Shown here one piece after another: positions 1,352-42,521 of a stretch of 64,000 nucleotides of DNA (within the stretch, counting starts at the first letter, position 1; each line of letters starts with the position of its first letter). Source of the DNA: Fistulifera solaris (Eukaryota). The position numbers and the translations under genes were made by a program. The stretch is taken from positions 124,001-188,000 of the forward strand of contig AP026132.1 in NCBI GenBank assembly GCA_030295235.1, written 5' to 3'. The notes beneath the pieces are model-generated. The model saw only the letters and a program-made list of their open reading frames with translations. It did no database searches and was not told the origin of the DNA.

Positions 1352-1410
1352 TTCATGATTGGAGTGCAGTCGTGGATAATTTCGTATACACTTTCAGCTA
1401 TAGTCAATTC
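1352..1410 (+). repeat. Solo copy of conserved hairpin+CTATAGT box (same family as 23.9-24.3 kb units)
   Basis: ttcatgattggagtgcagtcgtggataatttcgtatacactttcagctatagtcaa aligns with 24299-24355; upstream tcgctggaaaaatttga matches tcgctcgtaagaatttga. Confidence 0.75.
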
Positions 1411-1599
1411 AGCGTGCTTACGTCAAGACAGACGGAAATTCTGAATTTGTCTACTATGGACGTGCGGTGTAACGTACCCAGAAAATCTGGGAGATTCTAC
1501 ATGTTCGCGTAAATAATAACGCAAGACGAAAAACAACATCTCAAAAGGCTGCTACCAGTACAGGGCGAGACTTTTTGTTGAATTGATACTTTCATCATA

Positions 1600-2196
1600 A
1601 TGCACAAGTTCTTGTTGCCATTTCTAGTTTTATTCCTGCACAGTGTTCGTATTCCAGCGTTCCGTGGCTCTCGTAGGACAAAAAGAAACATGGTTGTGAT
1701 GCACGCTTCATCGTTGACTACCACAATGATTCCTCGTGCGGCCGTTTCGGTCGTCGTACACTGTCAATGGTCTTCGCAAAACTACTATTTATTGGTGCAG
1801 CGAGGAAAGGAACCCGCGAAAGGCAAATGGTCCTTTCCGGGTGGCAAAATTGAATGGGGGGAATCGACACTGGCGGCGGCGGTCCGCGAATTACGCGAAG
1901 AAACGAAATGGGCCACCCATCATCATCCACTCGAATGGTATCCCGGTACGGTGTGTACGAGTGACTCGATTGGATCGACGTATCATTATTTGATAGCACA
2001 ATGTTATGCACAAGTGACATTCCCCGTTTCGGAATTGCCGGTCGTAGCGGCTGCGGATGATGCGGCCGATGTGGGGTGGTGGACGTTGGATGACATGGAG
2101 ACATTGGATACGACGCCCGGATTGAGTGAAGTGATACGACGTATCGCACTATTGTCACAACACGGAATGCTTCCCACCGTGTCTCTCGAAGAATAA
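1600..2196 (+). CDS. Nudix hydrolase (ADP-ribose pyrophosphatase/MutT-like), possible N-terminal targeting peptide
   Basis: Nudix box GGKIEWGESTLAAAVRELREET preceded by LLVQRGKEPAKGKWSFP; C-terminal ADDAADVGW. Confidence 0.9.
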   Translation: MHKFLLPFLVLFLHSVRIPAFRGSRRTKRNMVVMHASSLTTTMIPRAAVSVVVHCQWSSQNYYLLVQRGKEPAKGKWSFPGGKIEWGESTLAAAVRELREETKWATHHHPLEWYPGTVCTSDSIGSTYHYLIAQCYAQVTFPVSELPVVAAADDAADVGWWTLDDMETLDTTPGLSEVIRRIALLSQHGMLPTVSLEE

Positions 2197-2309
2197 ACAC
2201 TCGTATTCTTGATGCACGTGATGGCTGGTAATGTTTATTCTATTGTACATTTGCTTTAATATTACAGATATTGCTCTTAAACTTTTCAAGAACGCGCTGA
2301 TAAAAGCCG

Positions 2310-5300
2310 CTATTCGGCGGCCCGATCAAATACATTCGAGTGCGGAGGGGGAGCCGCCAGCTCCAGCAGTTCCTGTGTACTCGTATCCAGCAGTGAATCC
2401 CACGCGAAGTAACTGGACTGGGAGTTGCATTCGAAACAGAAGGGGCCCGGAGGACTCAATTCCCAATCCACTTCCTCCATTTCTTCGCATTGCGTCAGGC
2501 GGAACATCTGTGTCGTGTCGACATCCGTGCGACCTTCGAGCTGTTCTCCCCAAATACAAAGGTTCTGTGCGAAAAAGCGACATCCTCGGAACATTTCTTT
2601 CATGCTACGGATGCTATCCAATTGCCAGGATGACAAATCTTGGTTGAACGCGGAGGCGGACAAGAACATTTGCTCCATACTCTGCACACGAGAGACATCC
2701 CAGTCGGATAAATCCGAGTTAAACGAAGATGCCCAAGAAAACATCCCGCTCATGTCCGTGACACTCGATACGCTCCATGACGATAGCTCGCTCGAAAAGG
2801 ACGTGGCCTGAGAGAACATTTTGACCGTGGTGGTTGCGTTGGAAACCGTCCAGCGGGACAAATCAGCATTGAATCGCGAGGCGCCTTCGAACATGGAAGT
2901 GAAATTGGTGACACTGGACACGTCCCAGTTGGACAAGTCCGCATTAAAGGAAGCGGCAGCACGAATACGGTTGCTGGAGAATAGCTCACTCAAGTCTCGA
3001 ATTCCAGAGAAGCACCAATTGCCGATCTCGTCTCCATATGTCGCTTCTAAGTATTCGAGAGTTTCTCCCAGCAAGTAAAGATCCACTGCATTGACAAGCT
3101 CTTCCTTCGATGAAAAGCACTTGACTGGAGCGGGTTTGGACGTTGGGCTTGATGTGGTGCTAGACGAGGGGCGGGATGTAGGCGGAGGTGGGGCGGACGA
3201 CGTTGGCTCCCCGGCAAACGCCCATATGTCTTGTCCTGAGAATACATCATCTACGAGGACTTCTTGAATGCTATTGCTGTCAAGTAAGGTACAAGTAGTT
3301 GTTGTTTCATCTTCTTGCAAACCCCTGCAATCGGCATTAAAACCAATAAATGGCAGATTTGTTGTTGAATTCGTGCCAAAGCAGATCTCACAAGAATTGC
3401 AAGCGATGCCATCAAACTCAATTTGGCATCGCAGTGCGAGGCCGTTGCGATTGTATTCGGTTGAGAAGCACGCATTCTCGTACCCTTGGGATCCACTCAG
3501 GTATTGCACGCATAATCTCTCCGACAAGTTGGAAGCTGCCCCTTCAATTGGTTCTCGTGACGTTGAAATAACGGTATCACCAGATGTGAACACATTGGTT
3601 CCGGAAACAACCGGCGCAATCGAAGCTGTCGGTGACGCTGCAGGAGACTTCGATGACGTTTGTGTTGGTGATGCTACAGGAGACTGCGACAGGGAGTCAA
3701 CCGTAGTCGGGCTTAAAGTTGTTGCCTGCGTGCTATTTGTTTCCTCATCGGACGAAATTGTTACAACTCTTGTGTCTGGGTCACGCAATGAAAGAACAAT
3801 TATAGCCACAGTCAGAGCGGCAATGGCAGCCAGCAACATGAGAATGATGCGCTTGAGGGGTATACCCCACATGCTTGATTGCTTATTGTAGTAGCTCTTG
3901 TCGGTTGGGTAGTTATCCCACGCATCATCTTGGCGATTGAACGAAGCTTTTTCATCATTTCGAATTGCAGAAGAAGGAGCGTGTTCAACCGACGCCTCGT
4001 AGTCCTTCTCATATTCATAATCGTAATCCTCTTCGCTATAGCCAGCATCGTCGTAGTTATTACCTTTTTCTCCTCCATAAGCAATCGCTCTTGATTGAAT
4101 TTGTTGATTGGGTACACTGTGTTCTCTTTCTGCTGCAGGTGATGGCTGGATAGGTCGTTCATAGTCGTCGAACGCAGGGAAGAACTCTGTATCGGTTTCA
4201 GGAAGCGATTCCCTTGCTTCCTGCGATGCTGAAAAATCCATTACGTATTCTGAGTGTTCAGATTTCTTCCAAGATCCAGAGGACTGGTCAGATGCTCTTG
4301 ATTCATTGCGACTTCTCAAAGAACTACTCCCACTTGCTTTGTTCCCAGCGTGCCGACTGAGTACACCTCTTTCTTCGTCAGAATCTGTAGGCGAGTCTTC
4401 ATCGTCGTAAAAGCTATCATTCTCATATGAAGTCTCCCGTTCATCGTCTTTTCTCAATGCTTTACTCTCATGATCAAAGCCAGGAGATAAATGCCTGGCG
4501 TACAACCCTTCACTATAATGGGCTGAGCTACTTTCATCGTCCCTTGATGAAGCCGATTGTGATTCGCTTCTGCTGCGGTAATCGTCTCCTGTCTCCCTAT
4601 CACTTTCATTTCTATCATCATCGTCGAGTCGTTGGGATCCGTCCCTATACCCATTGCCTCTGGGCTCACTATGTTCATCGTCGCCATAGGAACTATCATT
4701 TTCATACTCGTAATCGACGTTACGAGTAGCACAAGTCGCGTCTTTGTACCCGGTCTTTGTTTCGTCGTCTGCATATTGACTGAAGTGTGAAGTTTCGCTG
4801 TCATCGTCGTCGTCTCGGGCGCTTCTGTCTGTATAAGAGTTGACGTTTCCTTCAACGCTGTTTTCAGACGCCAATATTGCCTCTCTTGCCAACCACCTGT
4901 CATCTCCAATCACCACACCATTATCATTTTGAGCAATTTCGTCTTCGGAATCAAATTTACCGTGACCTCGCCTTCCCAGTCTATCACTGTCTGTGTGATT
5001 TGCAATTTCTCTTTCTCCGGCATCATCATCATCGACTTGAGATTCAGCGACAAAACTGACATTACTATAACCTTGGCTGTCCGACTTGAATTGGGATTTG
5101 TGCCTGTCCTCGATATCATTGCTATTTTGCGATCTGCCGCTGCTATCGGAATTCTCGAAATTGATGAAATGGTCCTCATCGTTATCTGACCCTTCATCGT
5201 CGCCATAAGCCCGGTCCGGAACGTAATTATTATCATAGCCTTCTTCGTCAACGTAAGCATCTTGATTGAAATGTGATCCTTTGCCGCTATGACCACTGCG

Positions 5301-8300
5301 TGCTGTAATGTCTTTTGTTTCTTCTGTGTCGCCGCCATATGCCGCGTTGTATTCTTCGTCTGCGAAACTTCCCTCGTCTCGACAATCGTTGTCGGGCTCG
5401 GACTCGGTATCAAACTCGAGACCGTTGTCAATACTTCGGCTAGACTGCGAACCGTCACTGCCCCCGTAACTGTTTGCATCCTTCTCATGGTTATAGTCGT
5501 GGGGCGCGCTCTCCTGCTCAGCGCCGTTGTATGATCCTGTAGTATCGCTGTTTGTCTCATCATAATCCCGATCGTCATGATAGTCTTTATCTTCATCGTC
5601 AACATTACAGCCAAACAATGATCTGTTAATGTAGTTGCCATCACGAGGTAAATTTTGTCCCCCTACCTCTGCGTTGTCGGCTTGATCTTCACGATCAGAT
5701 TCAGAGTTGAACTCTTTTGAAATTTCGATACTGTGGCTAGAATGTGATCCATTATTGCCCTTGTATTCGCCTGAGTCATTCTCGTCGGCGTCGGACTCGG
5801 ACTCGTCATTCTGCTTATCACTGTCGCATGATCCTTCTGCTTCGTTGTTTCTCTCATCATAACCCCGATCGTCATTATAGTCATTAATCTCATGGTCAAC
5901 ATCACGGCCGGAGAATGAACTATCATTGTAGTCGACATCATAAGCTGACTCTTGTCCCCCTGCTTCTGCTTTGTCGGCGAAGTCTCTTTGTCATTCTCAA
6001 CAAAAGTCGCGCTTTCTTGATTTTTACGATCAACTTCAGAGTTGGACTCCTGTAAATTGTCGATACTGTGGCTAGAATGTGATCCAAGGCAGCCCTTGTA
6101 TTCGCCTGAGTTTTTCTCATCGCCGTCTGATCCGTTGTACTGAGTTTCGTCATGACCTGATAACCGGCTTTCATTGTAATTCTTGTCTTGGTCCGGTTGG
6201 TCATAATCACAATATTCGTCGCTGACATCACGGCCAGAGTAGGATCTGTTGCTATTACTATAGTCCTGACCTCCGAATTCTTCTTCTTCGTCCTGTGAGT
6301 GGGCACCATGGGCAGTGTCGTACTTATCGTCGGCGAAACTAGCGTCGTCTTGACTCTCCTGATCGGAATCGGACTCAGGATCCGATGCAGACTCATGCGT
6401 GCTGTCAACATTGTGGCTAGATTGTGATCGATCACTGCCCCCGTAACCCCCATAGTCATCGGCGTTGTTGTCCTCGTCTTCGGATCCGGATTCCTCGCCA
6501 TCGTAAGAGCCTCCACTGTTCATATCCTCATTATAATCGTCATCTTCATTGTCAGCGCCACGGCTGCCATGAGAACCGTTGCTGTAATCGTCATAAACTC
6601 CTTCTACTTCTGCGTTTCCAGCATAAGATGCATGTGCATGGTGATCCGCGAGACGGGCATAATTATGATCATTGTCGTTAAATTCTGACCACGATCCAGT
6701 TGACTGTCCATCGCTGCCCTGATAGAGCTCTACGTCATCATGACTGCCTGTCGCTCCATCGTAAAGTTTGTTGCCGCGGTCTGATGGTCCGTCACCGGTG
6801 CTAGATTCGTCAATGTCTCCACCGTCGTTATAATCATCGCAATCATCATTGACGCTAATAGGATGTGATCCGTCACTGTAGTCTCCATCATAGTCTGATG
6901 CGTCACTGGCATCTTCCAAGTCATCGCATTCAGGTGCGTCGCATCCTTCACCGGCAAAGCTGTCGTTGTTCTGACTCTGGATATTTGAATTACTAAACTG
7001 GAGTTCCGAATTGCGTAGGCAGTCGATGTTTTGGCTTCCTTGCGATCCGTCATCGCTCTCACAGTCAACTGCGTCGTTTTCATCGCAGCCGCGCTCGTTG
7101 TATTGTCCGTTGCTACAAGTCTCATTATTGTGTAGATTCTCATTGCAAATATCTTCTTCCTCTCCAAATTCACGCCCGGAGTGCGATCCGTCGCTATAAT
7201 CACCACTACAATAAGATGCCTCACTGGCCTCTCCTAAGTCGTCGCAATCGATGGCGTTGCATCCTTCTTCGGCGAAACTGTCGTTGTTTTGACTCTGATC
7301 TATATATTGGGGTTCCGACTCGTGTATGCTTTCAATACTGGGGCTTGCTTGGGATCCATCGTTGCTCTCGTGGTCAACTGCATCGTTCTCATCACCGCTG
7401 TCTTCATTTATTTGATCATCGCTGCGCACCGAAACCTCTCCATCTCCATCACTATACGTCTCATCACGGTCCAGATTGTTATTTTGATCATCGAATTCAT
7501 CTTTGATAATACGACCGAAATCTGATCCTTCGCTGTAATCACCGTCATGACCTGACGCTCCTTCTTCATGTACGTCACCGTCCTCGGGCGCGCTGTAATC
7601 GTCGCGAGCGAAACTATTATTCTTTTGACTCTCTTGACTAGACTCAGATTCCCACTGGTGCGAATTGTCGACATTGTGACTTGATTGTGATTGATCGCCG
7701 ACTCCGTAGTCTTCTGCGTCTCTCTCGTCGTCGCGCGATTCACCGTAGTGTTCATCACCAGTCTCGTCAAAGTCCAAATCGTCATTGACATCATCATATT
7801 GAGGGTCGACATTACTGTCAACAGCGAATCCGTTGCTGAGTTCGCCGTCATGAGGTGCGGAACATTCTTCTTGGTCAAGTTTGGACTCGGACTCGGACTC
7901 GGATCCATGTCCATGGCTACTACCGCTAGAATGAGACCCGTCGCTGCCATAGTAATTGTCTGCAAGGTCATAGTGTCCATCACCGAATGTACTATCGTGG
8001 TCTTCATCTTCATATTCGTCCCCACCGTCAAGGCAAGAAGGCGAACCTCTGCTTTCATCGTTGTTTCCTTGATCGTCGTCGGCAAAGCTGCTATTACTTT
8101 GACAATCATTATCGGGCTCAGTATGCTGATCGATTCCTTTCAATTGGCTGAATTGTGATAAGCCACTGCAAGAAGCATTGGCTGTACTGCCGCGATGTCC
8201 TTCGTCGTTTACGTGTAAGTTGCTGGTGTTTCGAAATGATTGCGTGCGGTTGTTGTAAAAGTCTTCTTCATCTGCATAGTCATTACAAGCTTCGGAGACG

Positions 8301-16147: not shown

Positions 16148-16812
16148 CTCATGACTGAAAATCAGCCACGGTCAAAACGGACAACACATTGCGGCTATAG
16201 TAAGTTTTGGAAGTTCGCCGTTTTGGAGGATCCTCGACGTAAGACATGAGTAAATGAGGGAATCACTAAACATTAACCTAAAACACAAATTTACCTAAGC
16301 TAGGCACTTGTATCTGATCGTTAGAGCCAAAATAATAAAGGTAAAAGACAAAAAAATCAGATTGCCCATGGAGACCGGGACATTTAACCAAAGGAAAAAG
16401 GTCTCCGCGCTTATTTTGTTCCCGTCTTGATCCCATCTACTGAGGTTGTAGTCAACAAGTGCCTCTTGCAGCATCTGCACAACACGCCACGATTGTTTAC
16501 GTCGGAAATCATTTGACATTGTCCGCTTCTGTATTCACTATAGACACAGAGTGTTGGTTTACAGGGTTCACGACTGCATTTCAGTCCTGAATTGAAATTG
16601 CGTCAAGTCCGTAAATGACCACTGTCTTCCGTCTAACGTGCTAAATCGTGAACCCACAGGCCTCAATACTAATAAAAATATCTCGTGCACCATTTTCAAG
16701 ACGCAAATTGCTAGTCACGTCGCAAATACTTGCGAACCGACGTCTTTTAGTTTTTGACAATGGTTTAAAGTGTATGCGACCTTTTACCATGACTGGATTT
16801 CAGTCACGAACC
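16148..16812. repeat. Three degenerate copies of the conserved box: 16148-16245 (+), 16531-16590 (-), 16751-16810 (-)
   Basis: + tcatgactgaaaatcagccacgg..aacacattgcggctatagtaa..cgacgtaa; rc tcaggactgaaatgcagtcgtga..aacactctgtgtctatagtgaa; rc ttcgtgactgaaatccagtcatgg..tacactttaaaccattgtcaa; the minus copies are ~220 bp apart. Confidence 0.75.
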
Positions 16813-19395: not shown

Positions 19396-19426
<31 letters not shown>

Positions 19427-19723: not shown

Positions 19724-20037
19724 AATTAAAGTGAGATTTTATTTCGCAGAGAATGACGAAACTTAACACAAATGTAACTTTAAGAATATCTAACTCGACT
19801 CGAACGATGAACGACAACTCCGTACCGGTATGTTTTGTTGTTGCTTTGGTTTTTCCTCTTCAACAACGGCACCTGCCATCTTTTCTTGCGCGAAAAACGT
19901 GGCGCGTCAGATCGGTTGGGACAATGGAAGCCCTCGATGACGCTTTGCACTTAACGCGACAGAAGTTGATAGTACAGGATAGTACTTCAAGCCCCTTACT
20001 GCTTGCATACAACGGTTTTCGTTATTCACTGGAACAA

Positions 20038-20452
20038 TTTCATTCATACAGAAAATCTGGGGAGCTCCAGAAATTCTGGACAAGTTAAGTTACATTATTA
20101 CAGAAAAAAATTCTGGGGCAATCCAGAAATTCTGGACCAGTTGTATTTCATTCATACAGAAAATCATCTGGGGCGGTCCAGAAATTCTGGACCAGGTGTA
20201 TTTCATTCATGCAGAAATTTTTGGGCGGTCCAGAAATTCTGGACCAGTTGTATTTCATTCATACAGAAGAGCGGGGGCGGTCCAGAAATTCTGGACCTGT
20301 TGTATTTCATTCTTGCAGAAAATCCGGGGAGGTCCGAAAATTCTGGACCAGATGCATTTCATTCATACAGAAAATAATCATCTGGGCGGTCCAGAAATTC
20401 TGGACCAGTTGTATTTCATTCTTACAGAATATCTGGGGCGGTCCAGAAATTG
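20038..20452. repeat. ~52-bp minisatellite, ~8 units, each with palindrome GGTCCAGAA-A-TTCTGGACC
   Basis: Unit tttcattcatacagaaaatctggggcggtccagaaattctggaccagttgta; palindromes at 20175, 20227, 20279, 20331, 20388, 20440. Confidence 0.95.
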
Positions 20453-20461
20453 CCCATCATC

Positions 20462-21452
20462 AATGCGAAAGATTTTCGGATCCAAGAATCGATACATTGC
20501 GTTTTGAATGATGATGATATTTCGTAACATCACCGTCAATACCAATACAATTGATCATACCCTTAATGCTAGCATTTGTGGACTTCATTGTTGCCGATTC
20601 ATTTATTATCGAATTTCGATCGTGACTCAAGTTCAGTCAAGAATTGCTTGAACTATCACTTTGATCCTATAGTGAATTTGCGGGTGATCGATGCGAAAGC
20701 TTTTCGGATCCAAGAAACGATACATTGCGTTTTGAATGATGATGATATTTCGTAACATCACCGTCAATACCAATACAATTGATCATACACTTAATGCTAG
20801 CATTTGTGGACTTCATTGTTGCCGATTCATTTATTATCGAATTTCGATCGTGACTCAAGTTCAGTCAAGGATTGCTTGAACTATCACTTTGATCCTATAG
20901 TGAATTTGCCGGTGATCGATGCGAAAGCTTTTCAGATCCAAGAAACGATACAATGCGTTTTGAATGATGATGATATTTCGTAACATCACCGTCAATACCA
21001 ATACAATTGATCATACACTTAATGCTAGCATTTGTGGACTTCATTGTTGCCGATTCATTTATTATCGAATTTCGATCGTGACTCAAGTTCAGTCAAGGAT
21101 TGCTTGAACTATCACTTTGATCCTATAGTGAATTTGCCGGTGATCGATGCGAAAGCTTTTCAGATCCAAGAAACGATACAATGCGTTTTGAATGATGATG
21201 ATATTTCGTAACATCACCGTCAATACCAATACAATTGATCATACCCTTAATGCTAGCATTTGTGAACTTAATTGTTGCCGATTCATTTAGTTTCGTGTTT
21301 CGATCGTGACTCAAGTTCAGTCAAGAATTGCTTGAACCATCACTTTATTCCTATAGTGAATTTTCCGGTGATCGATACGAAAGCTTTTCGGATCCAAGAA
21401 ACGACACATTGCGTTTTGAATGATGATGATATTATTTCGTAGCATCACCGTG
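20462..21452. repeat. 228-bp tandem satellite, ~4.3 near-identical units
   Basis: Units begin ~20463, 20691, 20919, 21147, 21375; ORF track repeats at exact 228-bp spacing. Confidence 0.97.
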
Positions 21453-21774
21453 AGGACCGTACCGCGGTTTCGTACCGTAGGGCTTCGTACATTTTTGACG
21501 TACGAAACTTTTTCTACGAAGCAACTTCCTAACGGAAATCGCCTTTTTCGTAGATTTCGTACGATTCACGAGAATTCGGGTCTCATGATCAGAAGCGTAT
21601 CACCATGATAATTTTCATTGCAAAGCAGTCGCTATGAAACAAAGAAAACTTATTTATTTAGCATTGTTCAACATAATTCGGACCGCGATAATATCAAGGG
21701 ATGTTCTTTGCGCATTGAAATTTGCTTTACCAGGTAATATGCGACGGAGACGACGACGACCGCATTTGCTTCTT

Positions 21775-21990
21775 TCTGGGACGGCCTGGGAATTTTGGAC
21801 CAGATGTATTTCATTATTCATAAAGAAAACGTGGGGTGGTCCAGAATGACTAGTTGTAATTCATTCTTTTTTAAAGAAAATCATCTGGGGAGGTCCAGAA
21901 ATTCTGGACCAGTTGTACTTTATTCATACAGAAAATCTGGGGCGGTCCTGAAATCTTGGACTAAATGCATTATTTCATTCTTACAGAAAA
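21775..21990. repeat. Second, more degenerate block (~4 units) of the 52-bp palindromic minisatellite
   Basis: ggtccagaaattctggaccagttgta at 21892; tttcattcttacagaaaa; same orientation as the first block. Confidence 0.9.
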
Positions 21991-23475: not shown

Positions 23476-23856
23476 GGCATTGAAAGATAACTAGTTGAAA
23501 GCAAGACTATTATCATTAGTCTAATTGCCTTGCGCTTTTGCGTCTCGACAAAACAACTTTTTACATCCGGAGATCCCAAACAATAGCCAATAGCTCGTCT
23601 TACAGAATTTCCGTAAGTTTAAAAATAATGCTCAGATTTTCTGTTCGCAGAAAGACACATCACAAAGAATTTCCGTGTGACTCGAACTGTTGCTGTTGTC
23701 TTGAACGTGATTGTCTTCCAATGAGTGCCCAACTGCTGGCTAGCACCTTATGAGGCGGAGAAGTGAATGTACAATAGGTGAATCATCATCTTATTCATTA
23801 CTAGACTAGCAAAAGTAAAATGTTAGTGAGAAGACAATCTTCACCGAACTTATGAC

Positions 23857-24357
23857 TTATGACTGAAATGCAGTCATGGTCTCCTTGAACCATCACTTTG
23901 GGTCTATAGTAAAATCCGGAAGACAACGTTTCGCAAGACTCTTCGACGTAAAATAGAATGACGTGTAATGCAAACGCTGCTAAAGCCTATTGCATTGTAA
24001 CACGACACATGGAGCTTAAAAACTGGCTGAACGAACGAATAGGCAGCACTATCGCTCGAAAGAATATTGATTCATGGCTGAGTTGCAGTCACGGCGAAAT
24101 GCGGACAACGCACTCTGGTCCATAGTAAGTACTCCGTACACGGGAGACAACGTTTCGCAAGACTCTGCGACGTAAAATAGAATGACGTGTAATGGAAACG
24201 CTGCTAAAGCTTATTTCTATGCAACAACGATAAATATATTTAAGACATTTTACTGAACGAACGTATCGTAGGCAGCATGGTCGCTCGTAAGAATTTGATT
24301 CATGACTGAATTGCAGTCGTGGAAAATTTGAGATACACTTTGTACTATAGTAAATAC
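23857..24357. repeat. Two diverged ~215-228-bp tandem units bounded by three copies of the conserved box
   Basis: agacaacgtttcgcaagactc..cgacgtaaaatagaatgacgtgtaatg..aaacgctgctaaagc repeated at 23921 and 24145; boxes at ~23857, 24071, 24299. Confidence 0.9.
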
Positions 24358-24746
24358 TGTTGTATTATTAGGAGGCAGACGGAAATTCTGAACTGCTGTG
24401 TGTTCTCGCAATTAACGACGCTCTTCTTTTCTTTCACAGAGGCTGCTGTTGCCATGAACGTGACTTGAAAAATGGGTGTTCTGAACTCCTTCCATTGATT
24501 GCCCGTTGATCTTGGTGCTGTTGTCACCTTTCCAGCTACTACATGCAAAAAGGAAATGTAGTGCGTATTTGGTGCGTATAGAACCCCGATGCAAACTCGT
24601 GATTGATGGTCTCGTGACCCGTTGAAGTTGTGACTTTTATTTCTGCGCCTCGCATCGCTTTGGATGTCCCACCCGTCTCTTTCGTCTTTTTTACCTCGCA
24701 ATCTCTATCTCGACTCCTCTACGTATTGCATTGAAAGTGAAGAAGT

Positions 24747-27975: not shown

Positions 27976-28093
27976 TTTTGGCTACTGTAATAGCATCTTT
28001 GAGTATTTCGTCATTATAAACTTTAGAAAGTAGTCTTATTGATAGTGGGCAATTCGAACATACAAATGAATTATAAAAATAATCAACAATTTC

Positions 28094-31451: not shown

Positions 31452-33263
31452 CTACATTTTAGCGGGCCGTATGCACATGTACGTTTCTTCCGGAGGAAAA
31501 TCTTCTGCTACAAACGCACCATCCAAAAACGATTCACGTCTCCTCGTTTGACTAGGGGTACCACTAACCCATCTTCAACACGCTGTATTCGTCGACTGTA
31601 GATTTCGGGATAGGTCAGTATTAGTTCACGTCGTCTCTCTTTTCCATCATGCTTCCATGCACCTAATTGAAAATGAACCTGGTGTCGATCCTTCCAACGC
31701 AAAAAAGAACGCGGAGCCAGCATTTGAAAATGATGATCGCGCATCTCATCATTCGTCAGCACCAACGTTCCAGGACCGGCTACCAGTGCCGCTTGCATCC
31801 AAAACCAATCATCATTCATGTCGCGGGGTGTCTGATACAGTAGGCCGTGGTCCATCCATCGTTGCACGAGTGGTTGGACACTTTCGGGCATGAAATGACG
31901 TGCGAAATGGCGGCAATGCATCACCAATAATACTGACTTTCCTTGCTCGAGAAAATGCTGCACGGCCCAATTAATTTGATGGTAATCGACGTGTTTCGGA
32001 GAACCGGGAAAGTTGGTTTCAAAATAGCCGACGTTCGCACCATCAATGACCACATCAATCGTCTGACCGTCCGACAATCGTCGTGATAAATAATCTGTGA
32101 ACTGTTTCCAACATTGTTGTCGTTCTCCTGTATTCAAGACCGTCTTTTTCCGACCTTTGCGACCACCCTGATAATCTGATGTGTCGTTTTCCAATTTCCC
32201 CGAACTCGCAATCGTTTCGTTCATTTCTTTCATTTGCGCCCAAGCCATGCTGGACAGTTCGACCGGACGCAGTGGCGCGTCTTGTAAACAACCCGATAGT
32301 AATTTACCGGACGATGGATTGATACCGACATTTTCGGATACATCCCAATGAGTGTGACATTGCACCGGTCCAAGTAACACGGCTGGTTCTGCGTGAGGTT
32401 GTATTTCTTGCATCCAGCGATGTATGGTATCATTCTTCTCCGCGAATGCCTCTGGTAGAATCGCAAACTCGGACTGAAACCAGGATCGGATCGCTTGACA
32501 CGTCTCCTGACAAGGTACTAAAATATCTTCTGCCAAATCCGATAGTACACGTTCAAAAACACGTGCGTTCCCTGTCGCCGTAGCACATTGCAATAAATTC
32601 ACATACTCCTTTTCCGATAAAACGAGTCCTTGTTGCGACAATCGATGCCATACCCGTACCGCCGCTCCCAAATCTCCTTCATGACAGTACGCCAACAATG
32701 TCGCGGAATACAACCGCAATTTCGGCTTGCATTGAGCCACCTGTTCGGCTTCGGCCAAGAGTTCTTCCGCACGCGTCGTATCCTGGACTTTGAGGTGCAC
32801 TTTGATCAAGGCCGAATAGGCCGTTTCCGTGAGGGGGAATCCGAGTGATTGCATATGCTCGTAAAGACGTTTGGCATAGTTCAAACGCGTTTCAAGGTCG
32901 ACTACCGCATCTGGGAATGGTTGGGTCGTGGGTTTGCCTTTTCCGGCCGATTGTGAATTGTTTTGTGTTGCCTTGGGTGTGCCGACGTGCAAACTTCGTT
33001 GACCAAGACCATCGCATAAACTCAGTAGATTGTAAAAGGATTGGGCTTCAATTTTCAAACTGCTTTGACATGCTTCTTCATAGGCCTTTATGGCCTTTTA
33101 GTAGATCATTGTTGGAACAACAATCTTGCACCAGACGGCGAAAGGCGAGAACGTCCGGCTCCACTTTTTTGTTGCCGATCTTGGGCTTCTTTGTCTCAAT
33201 TATAGAGTCCTTGGCGGGTCGTTTCTGTCCCGCCGTACTGCTACAACGATTTGGATCTGTCAT
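31452..33263 (-). CDS. PRORP: Proteinaceous RNase P (PPR + NYN domains)
   Basis: PPR-like helices (PKLRLYSATLLAYC); NYN motifs VVIDGANVG, NDDWFWMQAAL, LTNDEMRDH; indels near 33075 and 31525. Confidence 0.92.
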
Positions 33264-33604
33264 CTTCGTAGAGTTTTAATAAAACTTTCCGTGTTCTTAG
33301 GATGTCAGAAGGAAAAGCTTTCTCTTCGACATGCTTCATTTTTTTCGTTTTTGTTCGTTCAAGCGAAAAAATTCGTGGATCGCAAGGAGCTGCATTACTA
33401 TAGCGTAATGTGTAGCTCTGGACGAGACGGAACCCAACTCGATTGCAATCCCGGCAATGGTCAACCTTGTTTTTTTGATTTCATTTAGTATAGTAAAAGG
33501 AACAAAGGATGGTACTGCAGTCGAAATTGCTTTGTTGTGATGTCAAAGGCGACGTTTGGTTTTTGTGAAAGGCATCGCGACAAATGAAACAATTGTGATT
33601 TGTG

Positions 33605-34595
33605 ATTCATGACCTACTGTACAATCCAGTCTTGGCTGGCGTAAACTAACACTCCGTTTCATAATAAAAATTCAAGGTGTCGATCCTCGGATTTTCGACG
33701 TGACAAATAAAAGAAACTCTTAACAAGTACTTCAGAATCATCATTGTTGCGACTTTACTTACCCGTAATTCTAATGATATTCGCAGTTGAATGGCAATGG
33801 ACGGATGCGAGAGACGCAAAACGGTACCCTTTGTTGTTCGGTTCATGACTACTGTACAATCCAGTCTTGGCTGGCGTAAACTAACACTCCGTTTCATAAT
33901 AAAAATTCAAGGTGTCGATCCTCGGATTTTCGACGTGACAAATAAAAGAAACTCTTAACAAGTAGTTCAGAATCATCATTGTTGCGACTTTACTTACCCG
34001 TAATTCTAATGATATTCGCAGTTGAATGGCAATGGACGGATGCGAGAGACGCAAAACGGTACCCTTTGTTGTTCGGTTCATGACTACTGTACAATCCAGT
34101 CTTGGCTGGCGTAAACTAACACTCCGTTTGATAGTAAAAATTCAAGGTGTCGATCCTCGGATTTTCGACGTGACAAATAAAAGAAACTCTTAACAAGTAG
34201 TTCAGAATCATCATTGTTGCGACTTTACTTACCCGCAATTCTAATGATATTCGCAGTTGAATGACAATGGACGGATGCGAGAGACACAAAACGGAACCCT
34301 TTGTTGTTCGGTTCATGACCTACTGTACAATCCAGTCTTGGCTGGCGTAAACTAACACTCCGTTTGATAGTAAAAATTCAAGGTGTCGATCCTCGGATTT
34401 TTCGACGTGACAAATAAAAGAAACTCTTAACAAGTAGTTCAGAATCATCATTGTTGCGACTTTACTTACCCGTAATTCTAATGATATTCGCAATTGAATG
34501 ACAATGGACGGATGCGAGAGACGCAAAACGGAACCTTTGTTGTTCGGTTCATGACTACTGTACAATCCAGTCTTGGCTGGCGTAAGCCAACACCC
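33605..34595. repeat. 235-bp tandem satellite, ~4.2 near-identical units, each containing the conserved box
   Basis: ttcatgactactgtacaatccagtcttggctggcgtaaactaacactccgttt(c/g)ata(a/g)taaaaa at ~33607, 33842, 34077, 34313, 34548. Confidence 0.97.
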
Positions 34596-34832
34596 CGCGT
34601 CATAGACCTCGAGTGAAGTCTCAAGGATTCGCAAAAAATGGCTAAAATGTAGACCTATTTTCACCTCATTTTTTATTTAATTAAAGCTTTGAACAACGAG
34701 CTCTTTAATCTTACCTAATCATTTCAAGTTTCAAGTATTTAATTATCTTCTAATTTATTTATTTATGTATGTTATCAGTGAAGCTTGGATAGACTACTGG
34801 TACCATACTTATTTATCACCAAACAAGATCAG

Positions 34833-37040
34833 TTACGCGAAACCATTATGACGCAACAGGGCATCGGGGCTCGGTTCGCGTCCTCGAAATTGCTTGAACA
34901 CTTCCATGGGATTTTCACCGCCACCCAAACTGAGCACCGTCTCGCGGAATTTCATCCCAATTTGTCTCACGGCCTCTTCATTGTCGAGGCCGACTTCTTC
35001 AAAAGCACTAAATGCATCCGCGCTCATCACTTCCGCCCATTTGTAGCTGTAGTAACCAGCGGCATAGCCGCCCGCAAAAATATGCGAAAAGCTACACAAG
35101 AAGCGATCGTCGGGCAACGGCAACAAATACGGAGTGTACTTGGCCGCCACCCGGTGCTGCACATCGAAAATCGATTCTCCCTCTCCCTTTTCTCCCGCTT
35201 CCGCGTCAAAGCTCGAATGCAGCTCCAGGTCGACTTGTCCAAATACCAGTTGACGACACGACATCATTCCCGCTCCGTACACACGTTGTTGCTTCAACTT
35301 TTGGAACATCTCTTCGGGCATCGGTTCACCCGTTTCCCAGTGTTTCGCGAAACCGTAAATAGTGGCACGATCGTAGCACCAGTTCTCCATGAACTGGGAC
35401 GGAAGTTCGACGGCATCCCATTCCACACCATTAATTCCTGAAACATCTCCAACCGTCACAGTCGTCAGCATATGCTGAAGACCATGGCCAAACTCGTGAA
35501 ACAAGGTTTCGACTTCACGAAAGGTCATCAGAGACGGTTGCGATCCCACTCGGGGGAGAGCCATTGCACGTCAAGTACGCCACAGGCACATGACGGTTCA
35601 CGGCCTCACTTTTCCCAATGCAAACATCCATCCAGGCTCCACCTTGTTTATCTTCTGGACGGGAATACGGATCGAGAAAGAAACTGGCAATATGCTGGTT
35701 CGTTGCTTTGTCGTACACTTTGTAAAAGCTCACATCCGGATGCCACACCTGCGCTTCACCATTGGCAGCTTTGACTTCAATGTTGAAAATGCGCGATACC
35801 AAGGCAAACATACCATCCAAAACCGCCGGCAACGCAAAGTACGGGCGCGTTTCTTCTTCCGTCAATTCGAATTTCGATTCTTTCAATCGTTCACTCCAGT
35901 ACGTGATATCCCACGCTTGTAATTTCTCCAGGTACTCTTCTCCTCCTTGGGCACGGGCCAGAGCGGTAATTTCTTCCAATTCTTGTTCGGCCGCCGGCAA
36001 CGCCCGCGCGGCCACCAAATCGGTCAATTCGGTCACGGCCTCGACACTGGGCGCCATTTTGGAAGCGAGACTCAATTCCGCATAATTGGCAAATCCCAAC
36101 AGCTTTGCCATTTCTGCCTTGAGTTTCAATGTTTCGTAAATGATAGGAATGTTGTTCTTTTCGGCACGGCATTCCGACGCCCGCGACAAGTACGCGCGAT
36201 AAATGGTTTCCCGAATGGTCCGATCGTTCATATGCGACATGACGGCGACGTAGGATGGCATATCGAGCGTGATTCTCCACGGTCCCTGGACCGGATCGAC
36301 CTCGGTTTGAGTAAAAGCCGCATGCGCACCGGCCCACAAGGCCTTGGCACTGTCGGGAACACCTTCAACTTGTGCCGGATCGTCTATCGTCAGTGAATAT
36401 TGCTTGGTTTCATCCAAAACATTGTTACTAAACGTGGTCGACAATTGCGCCAATTTCATTTGAATTTCATTGAATCGTTCCTTGTCGGCACCATCCAATC
36501 CGACACCCCCAATTGCATGGCCCGAAGTGAATTGGATATGGCCCGTTGTTGCGGTCGTGTTGTGCTTTGGATTGTTTGTAAAGCATCAAAGACGGGCTTA
36601 CTTTGCGAGAAACGACTCATGGCTTGTACAATTTTGGGTTGATTCTGTTCGTACGCTTGTCGCAAGGTGTCTCCATTGCGCACACCATTCAAATGTCCGG
36701 CGACACCCCACACGAAACTCAGTGGAAACTGAATGCGTTCGATTTCCGGCAAGACTTGATCGTATGCGGTTGGCTTTTTGGAAGAAGAGAGGCTGTCTTC
36801 CAGAGCGGTAAATTGTTCTTCCATTGCGACCAACAGTGTTTCGACGGCGGGTGTCAAAAATTCCGGTTCGAGTTGTTCAAATTGCGGAAGATCGTCTTGT
36901 AACAAAAAAGGATTGGTCGTTGTAGCAGTTTCGGTCGACGCCGTCGAGAAACGCTTCACTGGGGATCGAGACGCCCCGACCACCGAAAAGGCGTCCGTCG
37001 AGGAGAGCCAAAGAAGCGATGTAGCAACGGTCCATTTCAT
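34833..37040 (-). CDS. Oligopeptidase A (M3 zinc metallopeptidase), plastid-targeted
   Basis: [42 protein letters not shown]; signal peptide + TDA|FSV cleavage; two 1-bp indels (~36505, ~35550). Confidence 0.95.
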
Positions 37041-39993: not shown

Positions 39994-40066
39994 GTCGTGA
40001 CTCAACAAGTCATGAGTGGTGATGCTTTAACCATGCTACACATCGATCCATAGTCTACATTGAGAC
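39994..40066 (+). repeat. Solo degenerate copy of the conserved box in a divergent promoter region
   Basis: tcgtgactcaacaagtcatga ... tacacatcgatccatagtc. Confidence 0.55.
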
Positions 40067-40208
40067 TGCCGCCTACAACTCATTGCACAGTCGAATACCA
40101 TACCTTTACTCGTTACGTCAGCAATTGGCACCTCAAGGCCGCATCGAGCGCTGCTGCTCCTCTCACCATGGGATTGCCGCTGCTTCAAATTACAATACAG
40201 CATCCATC

Positions 40209-40950
40209 ATGAGTCTGCACATTGCCATTCGACGCTCATCCAAACTATTGTTCTATCCCAAGACTAGCGCCGTAGCTACCCTGACGGGCCGATCGTTCAG
40301 TACCAAGCCCAGTACGAATGATTTGGAAAAGCCCGTCTTGAAAGACAATATCCTTCCGGTACGATACTTTGTTGCATCTTCTACTCGGTTCTTGTTTTTT
40401 TGCCTCTTAAGTATTCAACATCATCAACTCATCTCCTTCAACAAAACACACAGACTCCGTGGAGCGAAGTCTTGGACAATTCCTCGAAAGTCTTCTTTTG
40501 ACGGAAATCATGCGGGCCTTTTTACTCGCCGGAGAAGCCTTTTTCAAACCCAAGGCTACCATCAATTACCCCTTTGAGCACGGTGCACTGAGTCCACGCT
40601 TTCGTGGAGAACACGCCTTGCGTCGGTATCCGTCGGGAGAAGAACGGTGCATTGCGTGCAAACTGTGTGAAGCCGCTTGCCCCGCGCAAGCCATTTCCAT
40701 TGAAGTGGCGGAACGGGAAGATGGGGCACGTCGGACCACGCGGTACGATATTGATATGACGAAATGTATTTATTGTGGATTTTGTCAAGAAGCCTGTCCG
40801 GTGGATGCGATTGTGGAAGGACCGAACTTTGAATTTGCGACCGAGACGCACGAAGAACTCTTGTACGATAAGGAAAAGTTGCTATCGAATGGTGATAAGT
40901 GGGAACGACAGATTGCCAAGAATTTGATGAGTGAGCATTTGTATCGTTAA
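40209..40950 (+). CDS. NDUFS8: Mitochondrial complex I 23-kDa Fe-S subunit (TYKY/NuoI), one intron
   Basis: [50 protein letters not shown]; intron ~40359-40453. Confidence 0.97.
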
Positions 40951-42521
40951 AAATAGGGTAGTTTGGCGGACTTGCTTTGTAAAAATCTTAGAACGAGATC
41001 TTGTCGTTTCCACTCATTTTCATTGAGACTCGTTTAATTTGATGAGCCACCTTTTGTTTATTGAACACCTTGAACATCCTACTTTAGCTGTGAACTTTCA
41101 GTATAATGGGATACTTAGCTTTACAGAAATAGAGTTAACGAAAAAAATTCACCTGTGGTCAAGGCCAACCGCAAGTCATTGAACCGTTTCGACAGGAACA
41201 TTTATTAGCTGTGCAAGAAGCTTCAAGCTTGAACGTCTCACATGTTTTATTCAGCGTTTGGGAAAGCATGATGCTCCGTAAATGGCAATAGAATTCGCGA
41301 AACAAAGCAGAATGGTGACGACAGACAAGCGCCTTGTTGTAAATATGTATGAAAGGCTTGGTCGTTGTATAGCGCGCGGAATTTGATCAATTATGAGGAA
41401 TCTGTCGAAAAGGATGAGGCGATCCCTCGGTTGAGGCACGAAAAGGCACTGTTTCCTGCCGACCATCGAAAAGTATTCAAAGTAACCTCGACACTATTCT
41501 TGGAGAATCCCATAGCGTTCATAGTGCTGTCTTCGATGGTTACTTTGTCTTCTAAAGACATGGACCTCAAACTAAGAATTTCGTTCGTCGGCGACATTCT
41601 TTCGGGAGTTGGCTTAAAGACACGACGTTCCATTGAAGGATTGTATCGCGCGGCACCCGAGAAGTATTCAACACTCATCTTTGCTTTAATCAAACTTTAG
41701 AGGTTGCAAATGAGAATTGAGTTACACTTGCTTGGCCGAAATTTGTGAGGCTGGTTAGAAATGTGATGCGGGATGGAGATGGAGGCAAATTTTTTGGTGC
41801 ATCGGCGAATTTGAAATTGGAAAATTGGAACCCCTAACCGTCCATTTCTCCTAAATTTCTAATTGACTATGATTTTTTGTGTACTTCTTTTCGTGTTGTG
41901 CGAAGCTTTCCACGATTGTGAAACTGTCAATTTCGCCAAAAGTAGAAACAGTTGATCTATACAAAGCGATCGTACCGGTATTGGAACTATGCGCGATGAT
42001 TATTACTCGCTTGGATTACAAACCCGAAGCATTGCATTGAAGAAGTTACCATCGATAGACACTTCGAAGGAATGATTTTAAGCAGAAATATAGACCGTCG
42101 CAAACTTCGTCGTCGACTTGATTTATAGGCCTATTATGGGACCGTCGCTGGCTCCTCGCTCATTTAAGACTATGAACGCAAGGAGAATCTAGAATTTTGG
42201 ACACGAAAACTGTTTGCTTATGAAGGATAAGTTCGCTTTTACCATGACTATGGATGTAAAACCAGTGGGCTTAAAATTAATTAGAAGTAGATGGCTTCTT
42301 CAAATGGTTAAACAAATACTTGACTAAGCGATCATCTTTGGCTCGAAAATAGCATATTCACATCTAGAAACTCAACTAATCGGATTTCTGGACTGAGGCG
42401 TTCTAAAGATTTGGTCAAACACTCCATGGAAGTATGCCAAAAGAAGGTTGTACCATGGCGACGTCTCGTAATGCGTCAAGAAAAGCTAGATCCATTGCAG
42501 CACCGCTGTAGATGAAAGATA

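Follow-up and report, generated by a model that had tools for sequence, protein, structure and literature searches.

A conserved box in a dispersed intergenic repeat family of Fistulifera solaris, tentatively read as a promoter-like cassette

Fistulifera solaris is an allopolyploid diatom, an oil producer and a target of genetic engineering; to our knowledge, the promoters and the repeats of diatoms are both poorly described. The stretch analyzed here (the window, 64,000 nucleotides of contig AP026132.1) is nuclear DNA of this species. Genes lying near the features described below include a NUDIX gene (ATG at 1601 by eye, NUDIX domain by Pfam), a large minus-strand gene, a minus-strand DUF285 gene, a plus-strand gene (ORF from 24849), a PRORP gene (ATG at 33263, placed from the N-terminus of P0001) and a 4Fe-4S protein gene (ATG at about 40209 by eye, Pfam Fer4). 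Between 1.3 and 34.6 kb, five intergenic loci carry strong copies of a single box. It consists of an imperfect dyad (two ATGACTG-type half sites), then ACACTYT and, after 3-4 nt, CTATAGTRA (the TATA-like part), often with CGACGTRA behind it. The two arms of the dyad are kept across copies; the loop that separates them is variable in length, from 5 to 12 nt.

The original prediction of a recurrent bipartite motif was borne out. A 23-letter consensus with up to three mismatches matched the window five times, against a mean of 0.00 over 100 shuffles, none of which reached five. An nhmmer profile seeded with 10 copies found 16 strong copies (E <= 1e-8), all 16 outside long ORFs; these E-values are partly circular, because 10 of the 16 are the seeds and the other 6 are array siblings of seeds. 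CGACGTRA, expected usually to follow the box, does so in 10 of the strong copies and is missing from six (all four 228-bp units, 1352 and 24299). Three copies are weak by nhmmer. As to the weaker sites proposed originally, the one near 33392-33450 on the minus strand was recovered at 33418-33395 (E 0.015-0.046), and the one at 39994 was found on the same plus strand at 39995-40056 but scored weakly (E 0.1-0.2); the one at 41861-41930 on the minus strand went unsupported (E 4.9). From 42 to 64 kb of the window, nhmmer found no box copy. The features are listed here, with 'strong' denoting boxes at nhmmer E <= 1e-8.

946..1015, plus strand: degenerate, weak box, located upstream of locus A (E 0.33 with the nhmmer core model, match 950-1013)
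1237..1347, plus strand: partial unit tail before box A (unit-level nhmmer E 0.29)
1352..1445, plus strand: box A, strong, with dyad, ACACTYT, CTATAGTCA and last part GGAAATTCTGAA (nhmmer E 5e-12)
16148..16375, plus strand: unit B1, strong box at 16148, dyad outermost on the left of the repeat block (unit model E 2e-28)
16379..16591, minus strand: unit B2, tail-to-tail with B1, strong box at 16591 (unit model E 1.5e-40)
16604..16811, minus strand: unit B3, strong box at 16811, dyad outermost on the right of the block (unit model E 2.6e-33)
20037..20451, plus strand: 52-bp repeat array with a palindromic core around GAAATTC (Tandem Repeats Finder, 7.8 copies, 79% matches)
20459..21451, plus strand: 228-bp array of 4.3 units (Tandem Repeats Finder), strong boxes at 20619, 20847, 21075 and 21303
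21452..21774, plus strand: tail after the 228-bp array with short TTCGTAC/GTACGAA-type hairpins (by eye; putative part of the family)
21775..21990, plus strand: 52-bp repeats, right flank of the 228-bp array (BLAST, 72-78% to 20056-20451)
23601..23690, minus strand: two ACGGAAATTCT copies, 52-bp-unit-like (by eye; one mismatch at 23601-23612)
23856..24068, plus strand: unit D1, strong box at 23856 (unit model E 2.8e-42)
24071..24296, plus strand: unit D2, strong box at 24070 (unit model E 1e-38)
24299..24392, plus strand: box D3, strong, plus 45 nt ending in GGAAATTCTGAA (nhmmer, BLAST)
33357..33418, minus strand: weak box with only the ACAC...CTATAGTAA part kept (nhmmer E 0.015)
33471..33605, plus strand: degenerate unit before the 235-bp array, with TATAGTAAAA and CGACGT (by eye)
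33606..34605, plus strand: 235-bp array of 4.2 units (Tandem Repeats Finder, 33606-34604), strong boxes at 33606, 33841, 34076, 34311 and 34547
39995..40056, plus strand: weak box; good dyad, lengthened spacer, CCATAGTC (nhmmer E 0.1-0.2)

Locus A resembles locus D, with 73% identity between 1280-1445 and 24227-24392 over 167 bp, and the similarity stops at 1445 (BLAST). The 235-bp array stops just past a box. By eye, the degenerate copy at 946..1015 keeps a dyad remnant and the TATA-like part.

Comparing loci allowed us to place the conservation within the unit. Between loci, identity is 0.71-0.76 in the dyad and 0.72 in CTATAGTRA, falls to 0.4-0.5 both in the spacer and over the following 40 nt, and is about 0.3, near random, in the remainder of the ~215-235-bp unit; the box is indeed more conserved than the rest, as had been proposed. 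The accompanying claim of near identity within a locus applies to the two arrays only: box subtypes differ among the three units at 16.1-16.8 kb, and likewise among those at 23.9-24.4 kb, also three. Such subtypes are common to different loci. Constraint on the box is seen at the level of the family, where it is the only part alike between loci and the part that other genomic copies share, but not within the arrays, where 6 of 132 box columns vary versus 15 of 265 columns in other parts of the unit. The neighbors D1 and D2 differ at 31 of 66 box columns, with fewer differences outside the box. Because the array box is no less variable than its surroundings and the D1 and D2 boxes have diverged, selection acting on individual copies where they stand is not evident, a point against the promoter-like reading preferred below.

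The repeat family is multi-copy across the genome and dispersed among unrelated flanks, as judged from F. solaris contigs aligned to the window. Many contigs match only the box (its dyad or its TATA-like half) and then diverge. Matches start at 23859 in D1 and diverge at 16806 in B3: loose ends occur in X1 contigs at 23859 (14), 24326 (13), 16806 (10) and 23912 (8), and in X2 contigs at 23859 (17), 24326 (18) and 16806 (13). The loose-end consensus behind 24326 holds the second half of the box again at its usual spacing, and an X3 contig begins at 24389, at the repeat end of D3. A joint from 34585 to 34073 reveals a mini-unit elsewhere with little beyond the box. Contig depth reaches 895-2517 over the 235-bp array versus a baseline of ~30-40; the 228-bp unit, at only 104-177, is seemingly hardly repeated beyond its own array. 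Outside F. solaris, the box is absent from IMG/VR, JGI metagenomes and prokaryote genomes, as well as from the surroundings of PRORP orthologues in other, mostly diatom-like eukaryotes (552 kb). Among the DNA searched, the repeat family is restricted to the F. solaris lineage.

The main rival to the reading that we prefer below traces this pattern to an unclassified non-autonomous DNA transposon, perhaps a Helentron/HINE-type rolling-circle element read in flipped orientation, with the box as its cis-acting end, at which recognition, nicking or termination would take place. The box would then be conserved only because it is needed for mobilization, its promoter position would reflect insertion preference, and the arrays would be products of head-to-tail replication or unequal exchange. 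We consider this unlikely, although it deserves serious weight. The dispersed copies with unrelated flanks, the subtypes shared among loci, the mini-unit that is little more than a box and the restriction to one lineage in the DNA searched are all consistent with a transposon end, and conservation between families but not within arrays is expected if selection acts at copying. The dyad lies at outer block edges (left of D; both of B, inverted) and keeps both arms around its variable loop. In block B (16148-16811), inverted boxes stand at both edges and the flank is not duplicated (by eye); self-BLAST found no inverted ends in blocks A, C, D and E. The combination of terminal inverted repeats and target-site duplication that marks a MITE or other terminal-inverted-repeat transposon is absent from blocks A-E.

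Canonical Helitrons have a 5′ TC and a 3′ palindrome (16-20 nt) located ~11 nt before CTRR, and insert between A and T with no target-site duplication. The F. solaris blocks share with them a conserved palindrome with a variable loop at the repeat-block edge. In contrast, CTRR within 8-15 nt past the dyad is present in one of 10 distinct copies as given and in none of the 10 when flipped, and no CTRR-TC (3′ to 5′) junction recurs in the arrays. None of the 65 window ORFs has a Rep, helicase or transposase domain, and none is a RepHel or reverse transcriptase. By eye, neither the B nor the D edges show a target-site duplication. Folded as DNA, the dyad reaches z <= -3.4 in five of 10 copies; the fold is weak in both array families (-2.7 kcal/mol, z -0.9 in the 228-bp unit; none in the 235-bp unit), which counts against a transposon end, as does the near confinement of the 228-bp unit to its own array. 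The weak box at 39995 has a dyad fold of -4.6 kcal/mol (z -1.9).

Another comparison is with HINEs such as Drosophila DINE-1 and oyster Cg_HINE. According to PMC4067079 and PMC7492417, these also occur as dispersed short arrays, each with 2-5 monomers 140-240 bp long, located in euchromatin and near genes, count palindromes or stem-loops among their conserved parts, and have monomers unrelated between families; both they and the F. solaris family are without coding capacity or obvious target-site duplication. HINEs as described in PMC4067079 carry subterminal inverted repeats of 12-15 bp, which lie 2-4 nt inside the 5′ end and 38-60 nt inside the 3′ end, and a palindrome of 5-10 bp at a distance of 8-35 nt from the 3′ end. 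When our units are flipped, the dyad lies ~10-14 nt and the CTATAG palindrome ~60 nt from the block edge, with no matching 5′ subterminal inverted repeat identified there. Additionally, in the loose-end consensus of other copies the flipped dyad is followed after ~10-14 nt by a T run, an arrangement resembling the HINE 3′ stem-loop and T string described there (PMC4067079). HINE signals, however, flank the array on its left and right sides, and it is these flanks rather than each monomer that are conserved in the oyster HINE (PMC7492417), whereas the F. solaris box is in every monomer. The flanks of the 228-bp and 235-bp arrays share no similarity at E < 1e-4 by self-BLAST of the two arrays. 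What survives of the rolling-circle end first proposed is its mobile-element flavor (multi-copy, dispersed, inverted plus tandem units), without the canonical Helitron end, HINE-type common array flanks or a RepHel ORF.

The periodic layout could also be attributed to a chromatin or replication organizer, either a CENP-B-box-like site on satellite-like arrays or part of an origin, as proposed for the putative centromeres of F. solaris. As in satellites with a protein box, one conserved box recurs per variable monomer of ~220-235 bp, much like the CENP-B box of alpha satellite with variable DNA between boxes. G+C is low, at 0.39 for both 20037-21990 and 33346-34832. A preprint (10.1101/2021.11.10.468027) describes conserved motifs at intervals on F. 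solaris chromosomes, tied to episome maintenance; these are likewise recurrent, 40-50 nt long, with internal dyad symmetry, and lie in low-G+C, little-transcribed DNA. However, their sequences differ from the box, and the three motifs that the preprint prints are absent from the window, where the best matches cover 27/49, 35/50 and 27/41 positions, no better than five shuffles each. The arrays are short (~1 kb), gene-adjacent and numerous per chromosome region, in contrast to CENP-B-box satellites, and five loci in 35 kb are mismatched to one centromere per chromosome. We regard an organizing role as quite improbable.

A further reading takes each unit as a small RNA gene, with the dyad and TATA-like element serving as an snRNA-type promoter (proximal element plus TATA), or else places the box within a ribozyme or other structured RNA, in the manner of retrozyme-like tandem repeats. 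An upstream element ~35 nt before a TATA-like box is a bipartite layout that, we presume, recalls snRNA-type promoters; the tandem repeats are ~230 bp long, and some RNA contigs hold unit sequence. For example, 33471-33547 is matched by an RNA contig of another locus, with poly(A) after the match. One poly(A)-RNA contig, also of another locus, spans an entire box and has 185 letters ahead of its TATA-like part, so the box copy of that locus sits inside the transcript, which counts against the promoter-like reading preferred below. In the whole window, no family of Rfam 15 (including hammerhead, twister and HDV-like ribozymes and snRNAs) reached its gathering score, the best match being a group II D5 model (E 0.0059; 24.9 versus 61 bits gathering), and nothing relevant appeared at E <= 10 in 16000-24700 and 33300-34800. 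Since DNA downstream of the box is ~30% identical between loci, no conserved RNA is present there. The units have no consistent T-run terminator, and RNAalifold predicted no pairs in a consensus structure of the box. Among nine pairs in 10 distinct copies, dyad changes are all one-sided (six G-T wobbles and three A-C mismatches, plus strand) and none is compensatory by eye. A small RNA gene is therefore very improbable, and with neither an Rfam match, a conserved RNA structure nor a compensatory dyad change, recognition at the DNA level is favored. Within the searches run, the earlier remark that the box matches no described element stands.

Recognition by a tyrosine or serine site-specific recombinase, with the box bounding cassette-like units, was also among the mechanisms first suggested. 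In some units, short CACT/AGTG-type inverted arms flank the CTATAG palindrome, and unit length is fairly constant. The arms are only 3-5 bp and are lost in some copies, the units have no cargo, and no recombinase is found among the 65 ORFs of the window; we give this reading hardly any credence.

The position of the copies relative to genes points elsewhere. The original prediction had put the clear copies upstream of genes, mostly between divergent pairs. All five loci do abut at least one gene 5′ end, but only two have divergent genes on either side, those at 16.1-16.8 kb and at 23.9-24.4 kb. Copies nearest a same-strand gene are all oriented toward that gene. Such orientation has little power as a test, since between divergent genes a copy faces a gene either way. 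The position and orientation of a core or upstream promoter element are found at box A, D3, 33418(-) and 39995(+). The TATA-like part of box A lies about 200 nt before the NUDIX ATG toward which the box is oriented, and that of D3, the copy closest to the downstream plus-strand gene, about 500 nt before the start of the ORF at 24849. The weak boxes at 33418(-) and 39995(+) are 139 nt and ~160 nt upstream of the PRORP and 4Fe-4S protein ATGs, respectively, and both of these decayed gene-adjacent copies retain the ACAC...CYATAGT part. On the minus strand, B2 and B3 are oriented toward the large minus-strand gene. The arrays are the exceptions: the two long arrays face the 3′ ends of the next genes, with no same-strand gene ahead. 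The box is not a general core promoter, because Skp1, a highly expressed gene of the window, has none. Among the three mechanisms first put forward, a putative protein-binding promoter box best fits position and orientation.

Our preferred reading, held tentatively and short of an even chance, is a lineage-restricted, duplicating or mobile intergenic repeat whose conserved core is a putative protein-binding, promoter-like cassette made up of dyad, TATA-like element and ACGT site. Monomers of ~215-235 bp (solo, in inverted pairs or in short tandem arrays) would have spread to many sites through transposition or duplication, with local amplification of some units and the long arrays as its by-products. 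The box may outlast the remaining unit because it is such a cassette. Sequence-specific factors would bind the dyad and the ACGT site, both of which resemble what we take to be bZIP-type half sites, CTATAGTRA would act as a TATA-like element with initiation ~30 nt downstream, and gene-adjacent copies would be present or former promoters or upstream elements of their genes. Loop variation of 5-12 nt between half sites is unusual for a dimeric factor and counts against the cassette.

This promoter-like cassette has parallels in transposable element-borne promoters and factor-site cassettes, such as co-opted MITE or LTR copies, which are likewise multi-copy, located in 5′ regions and oriented gene-ward; the F. 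solaris unit, too, combines a TATA-like element with palindromic factor-type sites. Unlike them, it has no terminal inverted repeats, LTR structure or target-site duplication, and its promoter activity is putative. A further likeness is a possible tie to expression differences of duplicated genes. In a survey of F. solaris promoters (PMC5935921), short motifs are over-represented less than 500 bp upstream of the genes of one subgenome, and a gene with the top motif tends to exceed the expression of its homoeolog without it. By eye, 13 of the 23 h-subgenome motifs given there can be read in the units or their flanks, including the TATA-like and ACACTYT parts, though by our own estimate the chance presence of 7-letter degenerate motifs in ~3 kb is high.

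If the family were concentrated in the 5′ regions of one subgenome, part of the published subgenome-biased motifs would be pieces of one repeat family and not independent factor sites, and the family would be a concrete candidate cause of the higher expression of one homoeolog. It would also serve as a marker to tell the parental genomes apart, and it might supply a compact native promoter cassette about 100 bp long. Were the box only a transposon end, it would offer a first way into a mobile element of raphid diatoms that belongs to no established class. In a bolder, improbable version, the ~220-bp unit is a minimal self-propagating promoter: an HUH/rolling-circle nuclease or other site-specific enzyme would recognize the dyad and copy the units, and TATA-like promoters would thereby be planted upstream of genes, in just one of the parental subgenomes, as a direct cause of homoeolog expression bias.

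Sequences beside the box also recur. GGAAATTCTGAA follows boxes A and D3 and appears again on the other strand ~130 nt upstream of the DUF285 ATG, and the ACGGAAATTCT pair at 23601..23690 is oriented toward the same gene. The 52-bp repeat array that forms the left flank of the 228-bp array has a contig depth of 1279 versus the baseline of ~30-40, and by eye it looks like the segment after boxes A and D3.

The box consists of a dyad of two ATGACTG-type half sites, a spacer and ACACTYT-n3-4-CTATAGTRA, and is carried once in each repeat unit of ~215-235 bp. A 23-letter consensus, allowed up to 3 mismatches, matched the window 5 times against 0.00 expected, and 5 matches were reached in 0 of 100 shuffles. 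From an alignment of 10 distinct copies we built a profile, which in a search of the window returned 16 copies at E <= 1e-8, made up of the 10 seeds and 6 array siblings of seeds, with E-values that are partly by construction. These strong copies and three weak ones are given below, together with the genes that some of them precede or face.

Box copies found by profile search of the window
1352 (+), strong: box A, ~200 nt before the NUDIX ATG
16148 (+), strong: unit B1, towards a biotin/lipoyl-domain gene (Pfam Biotin_lipoyl) 1.1 kb off
16591 (-) and 16811 (-), strong: units B2 and B3, towards a large minus-strand gene
20459-21451, 228-bp array: four strong copies
23856 (+) and 24070 (+), strong: units D1 and D2
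24299 (+), strong: unit D3, ~500 nt before the ORF at 24849
33606-34605, 235-bp array: five strong copies
33418 (-), weak: 139 nt before the PRORP start codon, the latter located by the N-terminus of the database protein
39995 (+), weak: ~160 nt before the ATG of the 4Fe-4S protein gene
950 (+), weak

Tandem Repeats Finder delineated both long arrays and a 52-bp array adjoining the 228-bp one. The profile search found no copy in 42-64 kb of the window, and a copy previously claimed at 41861-41930 scored E 4.9 and is not supported.

The central claim of the original prediction was that a conserved box punctuates divergent units. In whole-unit alignment, units of different loci are weakly homologous over their full length, with a between-locus identity of 0.71-0.76 in the dyad and 0.72 in CTATAGTRA, falling to 0.4-0.5 over the spacer and the next 40 nt and to ~0.3 elsewhere; the claim is therefore right. 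Two of its details need narrowing. The sequence CGACGTRA, said to follow the box usually, does so in 10 of the 16 strong copies, and the near-identity of units within a locus does not extend to 16.1-16.8 and 23.9-24.4 kb, where the units carry differing box subtypes. Variability of the box within arrays is not depleted, at low power, with 6 of 132 box columns variable and 15 of 265 in the rest (three 228-bp and four 235-bp units). D1 and D2 differ at 31 of 66 box columns and are almost identical across the following 60 nt. On both comparisons, therefore, the box is conserved between families but not visibly in place, as is expected if selection acts at unit copying, or if only some copies are functional.

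The dyad itself is imperfect, with a loop of 5-12 nt between two ATGACTG-type arms, and the sequence of both arms is conserved. Changes in it, whether transitions or transversions, are one-sided, comprising 6 G-T wobbles, 3 A-C mismatches and 3 others when counted by eye on the plus strand. No compensatory pair was seen by eye on the alignment, and RNAalifold on 13 copies found no consensus structure. Folded as single-stranded DNA, 5 of 10 copies form a good dyad (-5.4 to -7.5 kcal/mol, z <= -3.4); it is weak in the 228-bp unit and absent from the best fold of the 235-bp unit. One-sided changes, the lack of a consensus structure and patchy folding together argue that sequence is kept more than structure.

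Around the dyad, the copies also have in common ~10 bases upstream, AATTTGAT-like, and a spacer of ~22-25 nt before ACACTYT-n3-4-CTATAGTRA, with loose spacer subtypes common to different loci. A heat-shock element was considered as the identity of GAAATTCTG and rejected, the spacing by eye being 1 nt, not 2. Most units continue into a region of varying dyad symmetry with CGACGTRA at its end. In box A and D3, the copies nearest genes, the continuation runs for ~30 nt to GGAAATTCTGAA, and similarity ends at 1445 and 24392; A and D align over 167 bp at 73%, spanning the junction of unit tail, box and 45 nt. This 12-letter motif recurs with one mismatch on the minus strand, ~130 nt before the start codon of the DUF285 gene at 23.5 kb, where a second motif copy precedes the minus-strand GGAAATTCTGAA-like copy, and the 52-bp repeat that flanks the 228-bp array left and right has a palindromic relative of the motif as its core. 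Given this recurrence near boxes, near the DUF285 gene and in the 52-bp repeat, the box units, the repeat and the motif seem to be one superfamily. The 52-bp repeat, with its near-palindromic core, occupies 20037-20451 and 21775-21990, and in the tail after the 228-bp array (21486-21560) TTCGTAC/GTACGAA is the basis of several short perfect hairpins.

The reach of the family beyond the window was followed in contigs of four public sequencing runs aligned to 16000-35000 at 80% likeness. The organism's own run (X1) behaves as DNA, with an even depth of 30-40 across genes and spacers. A wetland metagenome (X2) contains 74% of the sampled words of 16000-25000 with matching repeat depths, and thus a near-identical diatom genome is present in an environmental sample. 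A further run (X4) behaves as RNA, because its contigs have poly(A) tails and spliced joints.

Summed X1 depth over repeat regions (summed depth is not copy number)
16000-17267: locus B, 53-69
19804-20437: 52-bp repeat, 1279
20438-21705: 228-bp array, 104-177
23608-24241 and 24242-24875: locus D, 527 and 280
33118-35000, three bins: 235-bp array and surroundings, 895, 2517 and 1417

The 52-bp repeat has the second-highest depth in the aligned stretch (1279 versus ~35) and seems to be a high-copy family of its own, related to the motif after boxes A and D3. At 34605-34830, the sequence to the right of the 235-bp array lies within the bin of depth 1417, which also covers the array end, and may be another repeat. 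Loose contig ends in X1 fall at the box: 14 contigs begin matching at 23859, on the first dyad base, 13 end directly past a dyad, at 24326, a further 10 end at 16806 and 8 begin at 23912. The corresponding loose ends in X2 number 17, 18 and 13 contigs. The flanks of these contigs disagree mutually (agreement 0.44-0.56), and therefore many genomic places have the box in common and little else. Behind 24326, the consensus of the loose ends gives the ACAC..TTTGGCTATAGT half again at the usual spacing, and contig joints reveal variants elsewhere with other loops, other spacers and a mini-unit of barely more than the box. Outside this genome, the 23-letter dyad consensus had no exact match in IMG/VR (0 loci), and a more degenerate 23-letter pattern likewise had none among 241 million records of JGI metagenomes or in a set of prokaryote genomes with one per species. 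Eighty metagenome loci around PRORP relatives (551,987 bases), mostly diatom-like, at best 58% identical in amino acids and none F. solaris-like, held no credible box; two matches at E 0.54 are identical in sequence. Within the DNA searched, the box family is confined to the F. solaris lineage.

There are possible explanations for what the box does. Our tentative preference, held at somewhat less than even confidence, is for a portable promoter-like cassette on a repeat that duplicates or moves. In this reading CTATAGTRA would be a TATA-like element, and the dyad and the ACGT site factor sites; genes would use the copies next to them as promoters or upstream elements, with the arrays arising as by-products. 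Strong copies never lie inside long ORFs, and the copies nearest a same-strand gene are oriented towards that gene. The location mostly between divergent gene pairs that was originally proposed is narrowed to 2 of 5 loci, and all 5 adjoin a gene 5′ end. Highly expressed Skp1 is without a box, which is therefore not a general core promoter. Several observations count against the cassette. Both long arrays adjoin the 5′ ends of PFK2 and PRORP yet face away from them, each towards a neighbouring gene's 3′ end; the loop varies in length; and a whole box is read through in an RNA contig that derives from another locus. No X4 contig covers 16000-17267, 19804-21705 or 33752-34385, which is uninformative on expression. 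One X4 poly(A)-RNA contig from another locus matches 77 bases of a degenerate unit (33471-33547) and then passes into poly(A), so a family copy elsewhere provides a transcript 3′ end.

Alternatively, the box may be no more than the cis end of a non-autonomous transposon of unclassified, perhaps rolling-circle, kind, a reading that we regard as rather unlikely. An insertion preference would explain the promoter position. However, the window offers no defined ends, target-site signature or partner, and the 228-bp unit seems barely repeated beyond its own array. The boxes at the two edges of block B are inverted, and inspection of blocks B and D by eye showed no target-site duplication. Among 65 long ORFs of the window, Pfam found no transposase, reverse transcriptase or Rep/helicase, and a protein search with an ORF running through the 235-bp array gave no relatives. 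A canonical Helitron end (palindrome, ~11 nt, CTRR) is present in 1 of 10 copies, and in 0 of 10 when flipped. When flipped, the dyad would form a stem-loop at the 3′ side, ~10-14 nt away from a T-rich edge, which resembles the Helentron non-autonomous elements (HINEs) described in PMC4067079 and PMC7492417. However, the two arrays here are without common flanks, no 5′ subTIR was found and, in contrast to HINEs, the signal is present in each monomer. The cassette and the transposon end both survive these comparisons and are compatible with each other. The kind is familiar, being a dispersed family with short arrays and a conserved core in gene-proximal DNA, and the family itself is absent from the literature searched. 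Neither it nor its dyad was found there; the 15-letter dyad core occurred in no paper and, among the matches listed, 12-letter pieces occurred only in unrelated papers.

A chromatin or origin element, a small RNA and a recombinase site are each highly improbable as readings of the box. Across the window no Rfam family reached its gathering score, and the repeat regions gave no relevant match at E <= 10. An F. solaris preprint (bioRxiv) links three motifs to putative centromeres and replication origins, and these three centromere/ARS motifs are absent from the window. The non-coding repeat block 20037-21990 (1954 bp, G+C 0.39) resembles in size and G+C the putative centromere that the same text gives for Chr 22_h (1952 bp, 37% G+C, small repeated elements), which is probably coincidence, because the published motifs are absent there.

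The main interest of the box is a possible tie to expression bias between the homoeologs of an allopolyploid alga. The window DNA, from the pennate diatom Fistulifera solaris, is nuclear. An F. solaris NCBI protein with locus tag FisN_30Hh081 matches the ORF at 31508-33097 (-) at 100% identity, and from this tag we infer that the window belongs to the ‘h’ subgenome; a second protein, 87% identical, is probably the homoeolog. According to PMC5935921, motifs biased to one subgenome were sought in 500 bp upstream of predicted starts. There, the top motif is a degenerate word of 7 letters, reported upstream of homoeologous genes in both subgenomes (2113 in h and 1588 in l), and the homoeolog with this word is more highly expressed. 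In Table S4 of that survey, 13 of 23 h-biased motifs can be read by eye in the box units and flanks.

Table S4 motifs (PMC5935921) read by eye in box units and flanks
Motifs 1, 5, 9 and 22: TATA-like part
Motif 20: ACACTYT part
Motif 14: after boxes A and D3, and in the B1 spacer
Motif 10: 52-bp unit
Motifs 12 and 23: 228-bp unit
Motif 3: degenerate unit at 33.58 kb
Motifs 2, 11 and 13: right flank of the 235-bp array

By our own arithmetic, chance presence in ~3 kb is 0.5-0.9 for each 7-letter motif and ~0.16 for each 8-letter motif; 6 of the 10 8-letter motifs in that table are present by eye. As a lead, no demonstration, part of the published list may be pieces of the box repeat family, and the further interest is that published ‘promoter motifs’ are possibly fragments of one repeat.

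By Pfam, the 65 long ORFs represent ordinary host genes, including NUDIX, large DUF285 proteins, PFK2/FBPase2, a GRIP-domain protein, Skp1, PRORP, an M3 peptidase, an EamA transporter and a 4Fe-4S protein, among others; no tRNA or tmRNA was found in the window. Three DUF285 genes share 35 kb with all box loci. On the minus strand, 2310-16171 holds very long DUF285 (BspA-like) ORFs with internal repeats at 5.3-7.9 kb and strongly negative AT and GC skew. A gene family has expanded locally at 51600-60300, where five paralogous units of ~2 kb stand in tandem with mutual identities of 60-74% and one ORF has a MYND zinc finger.
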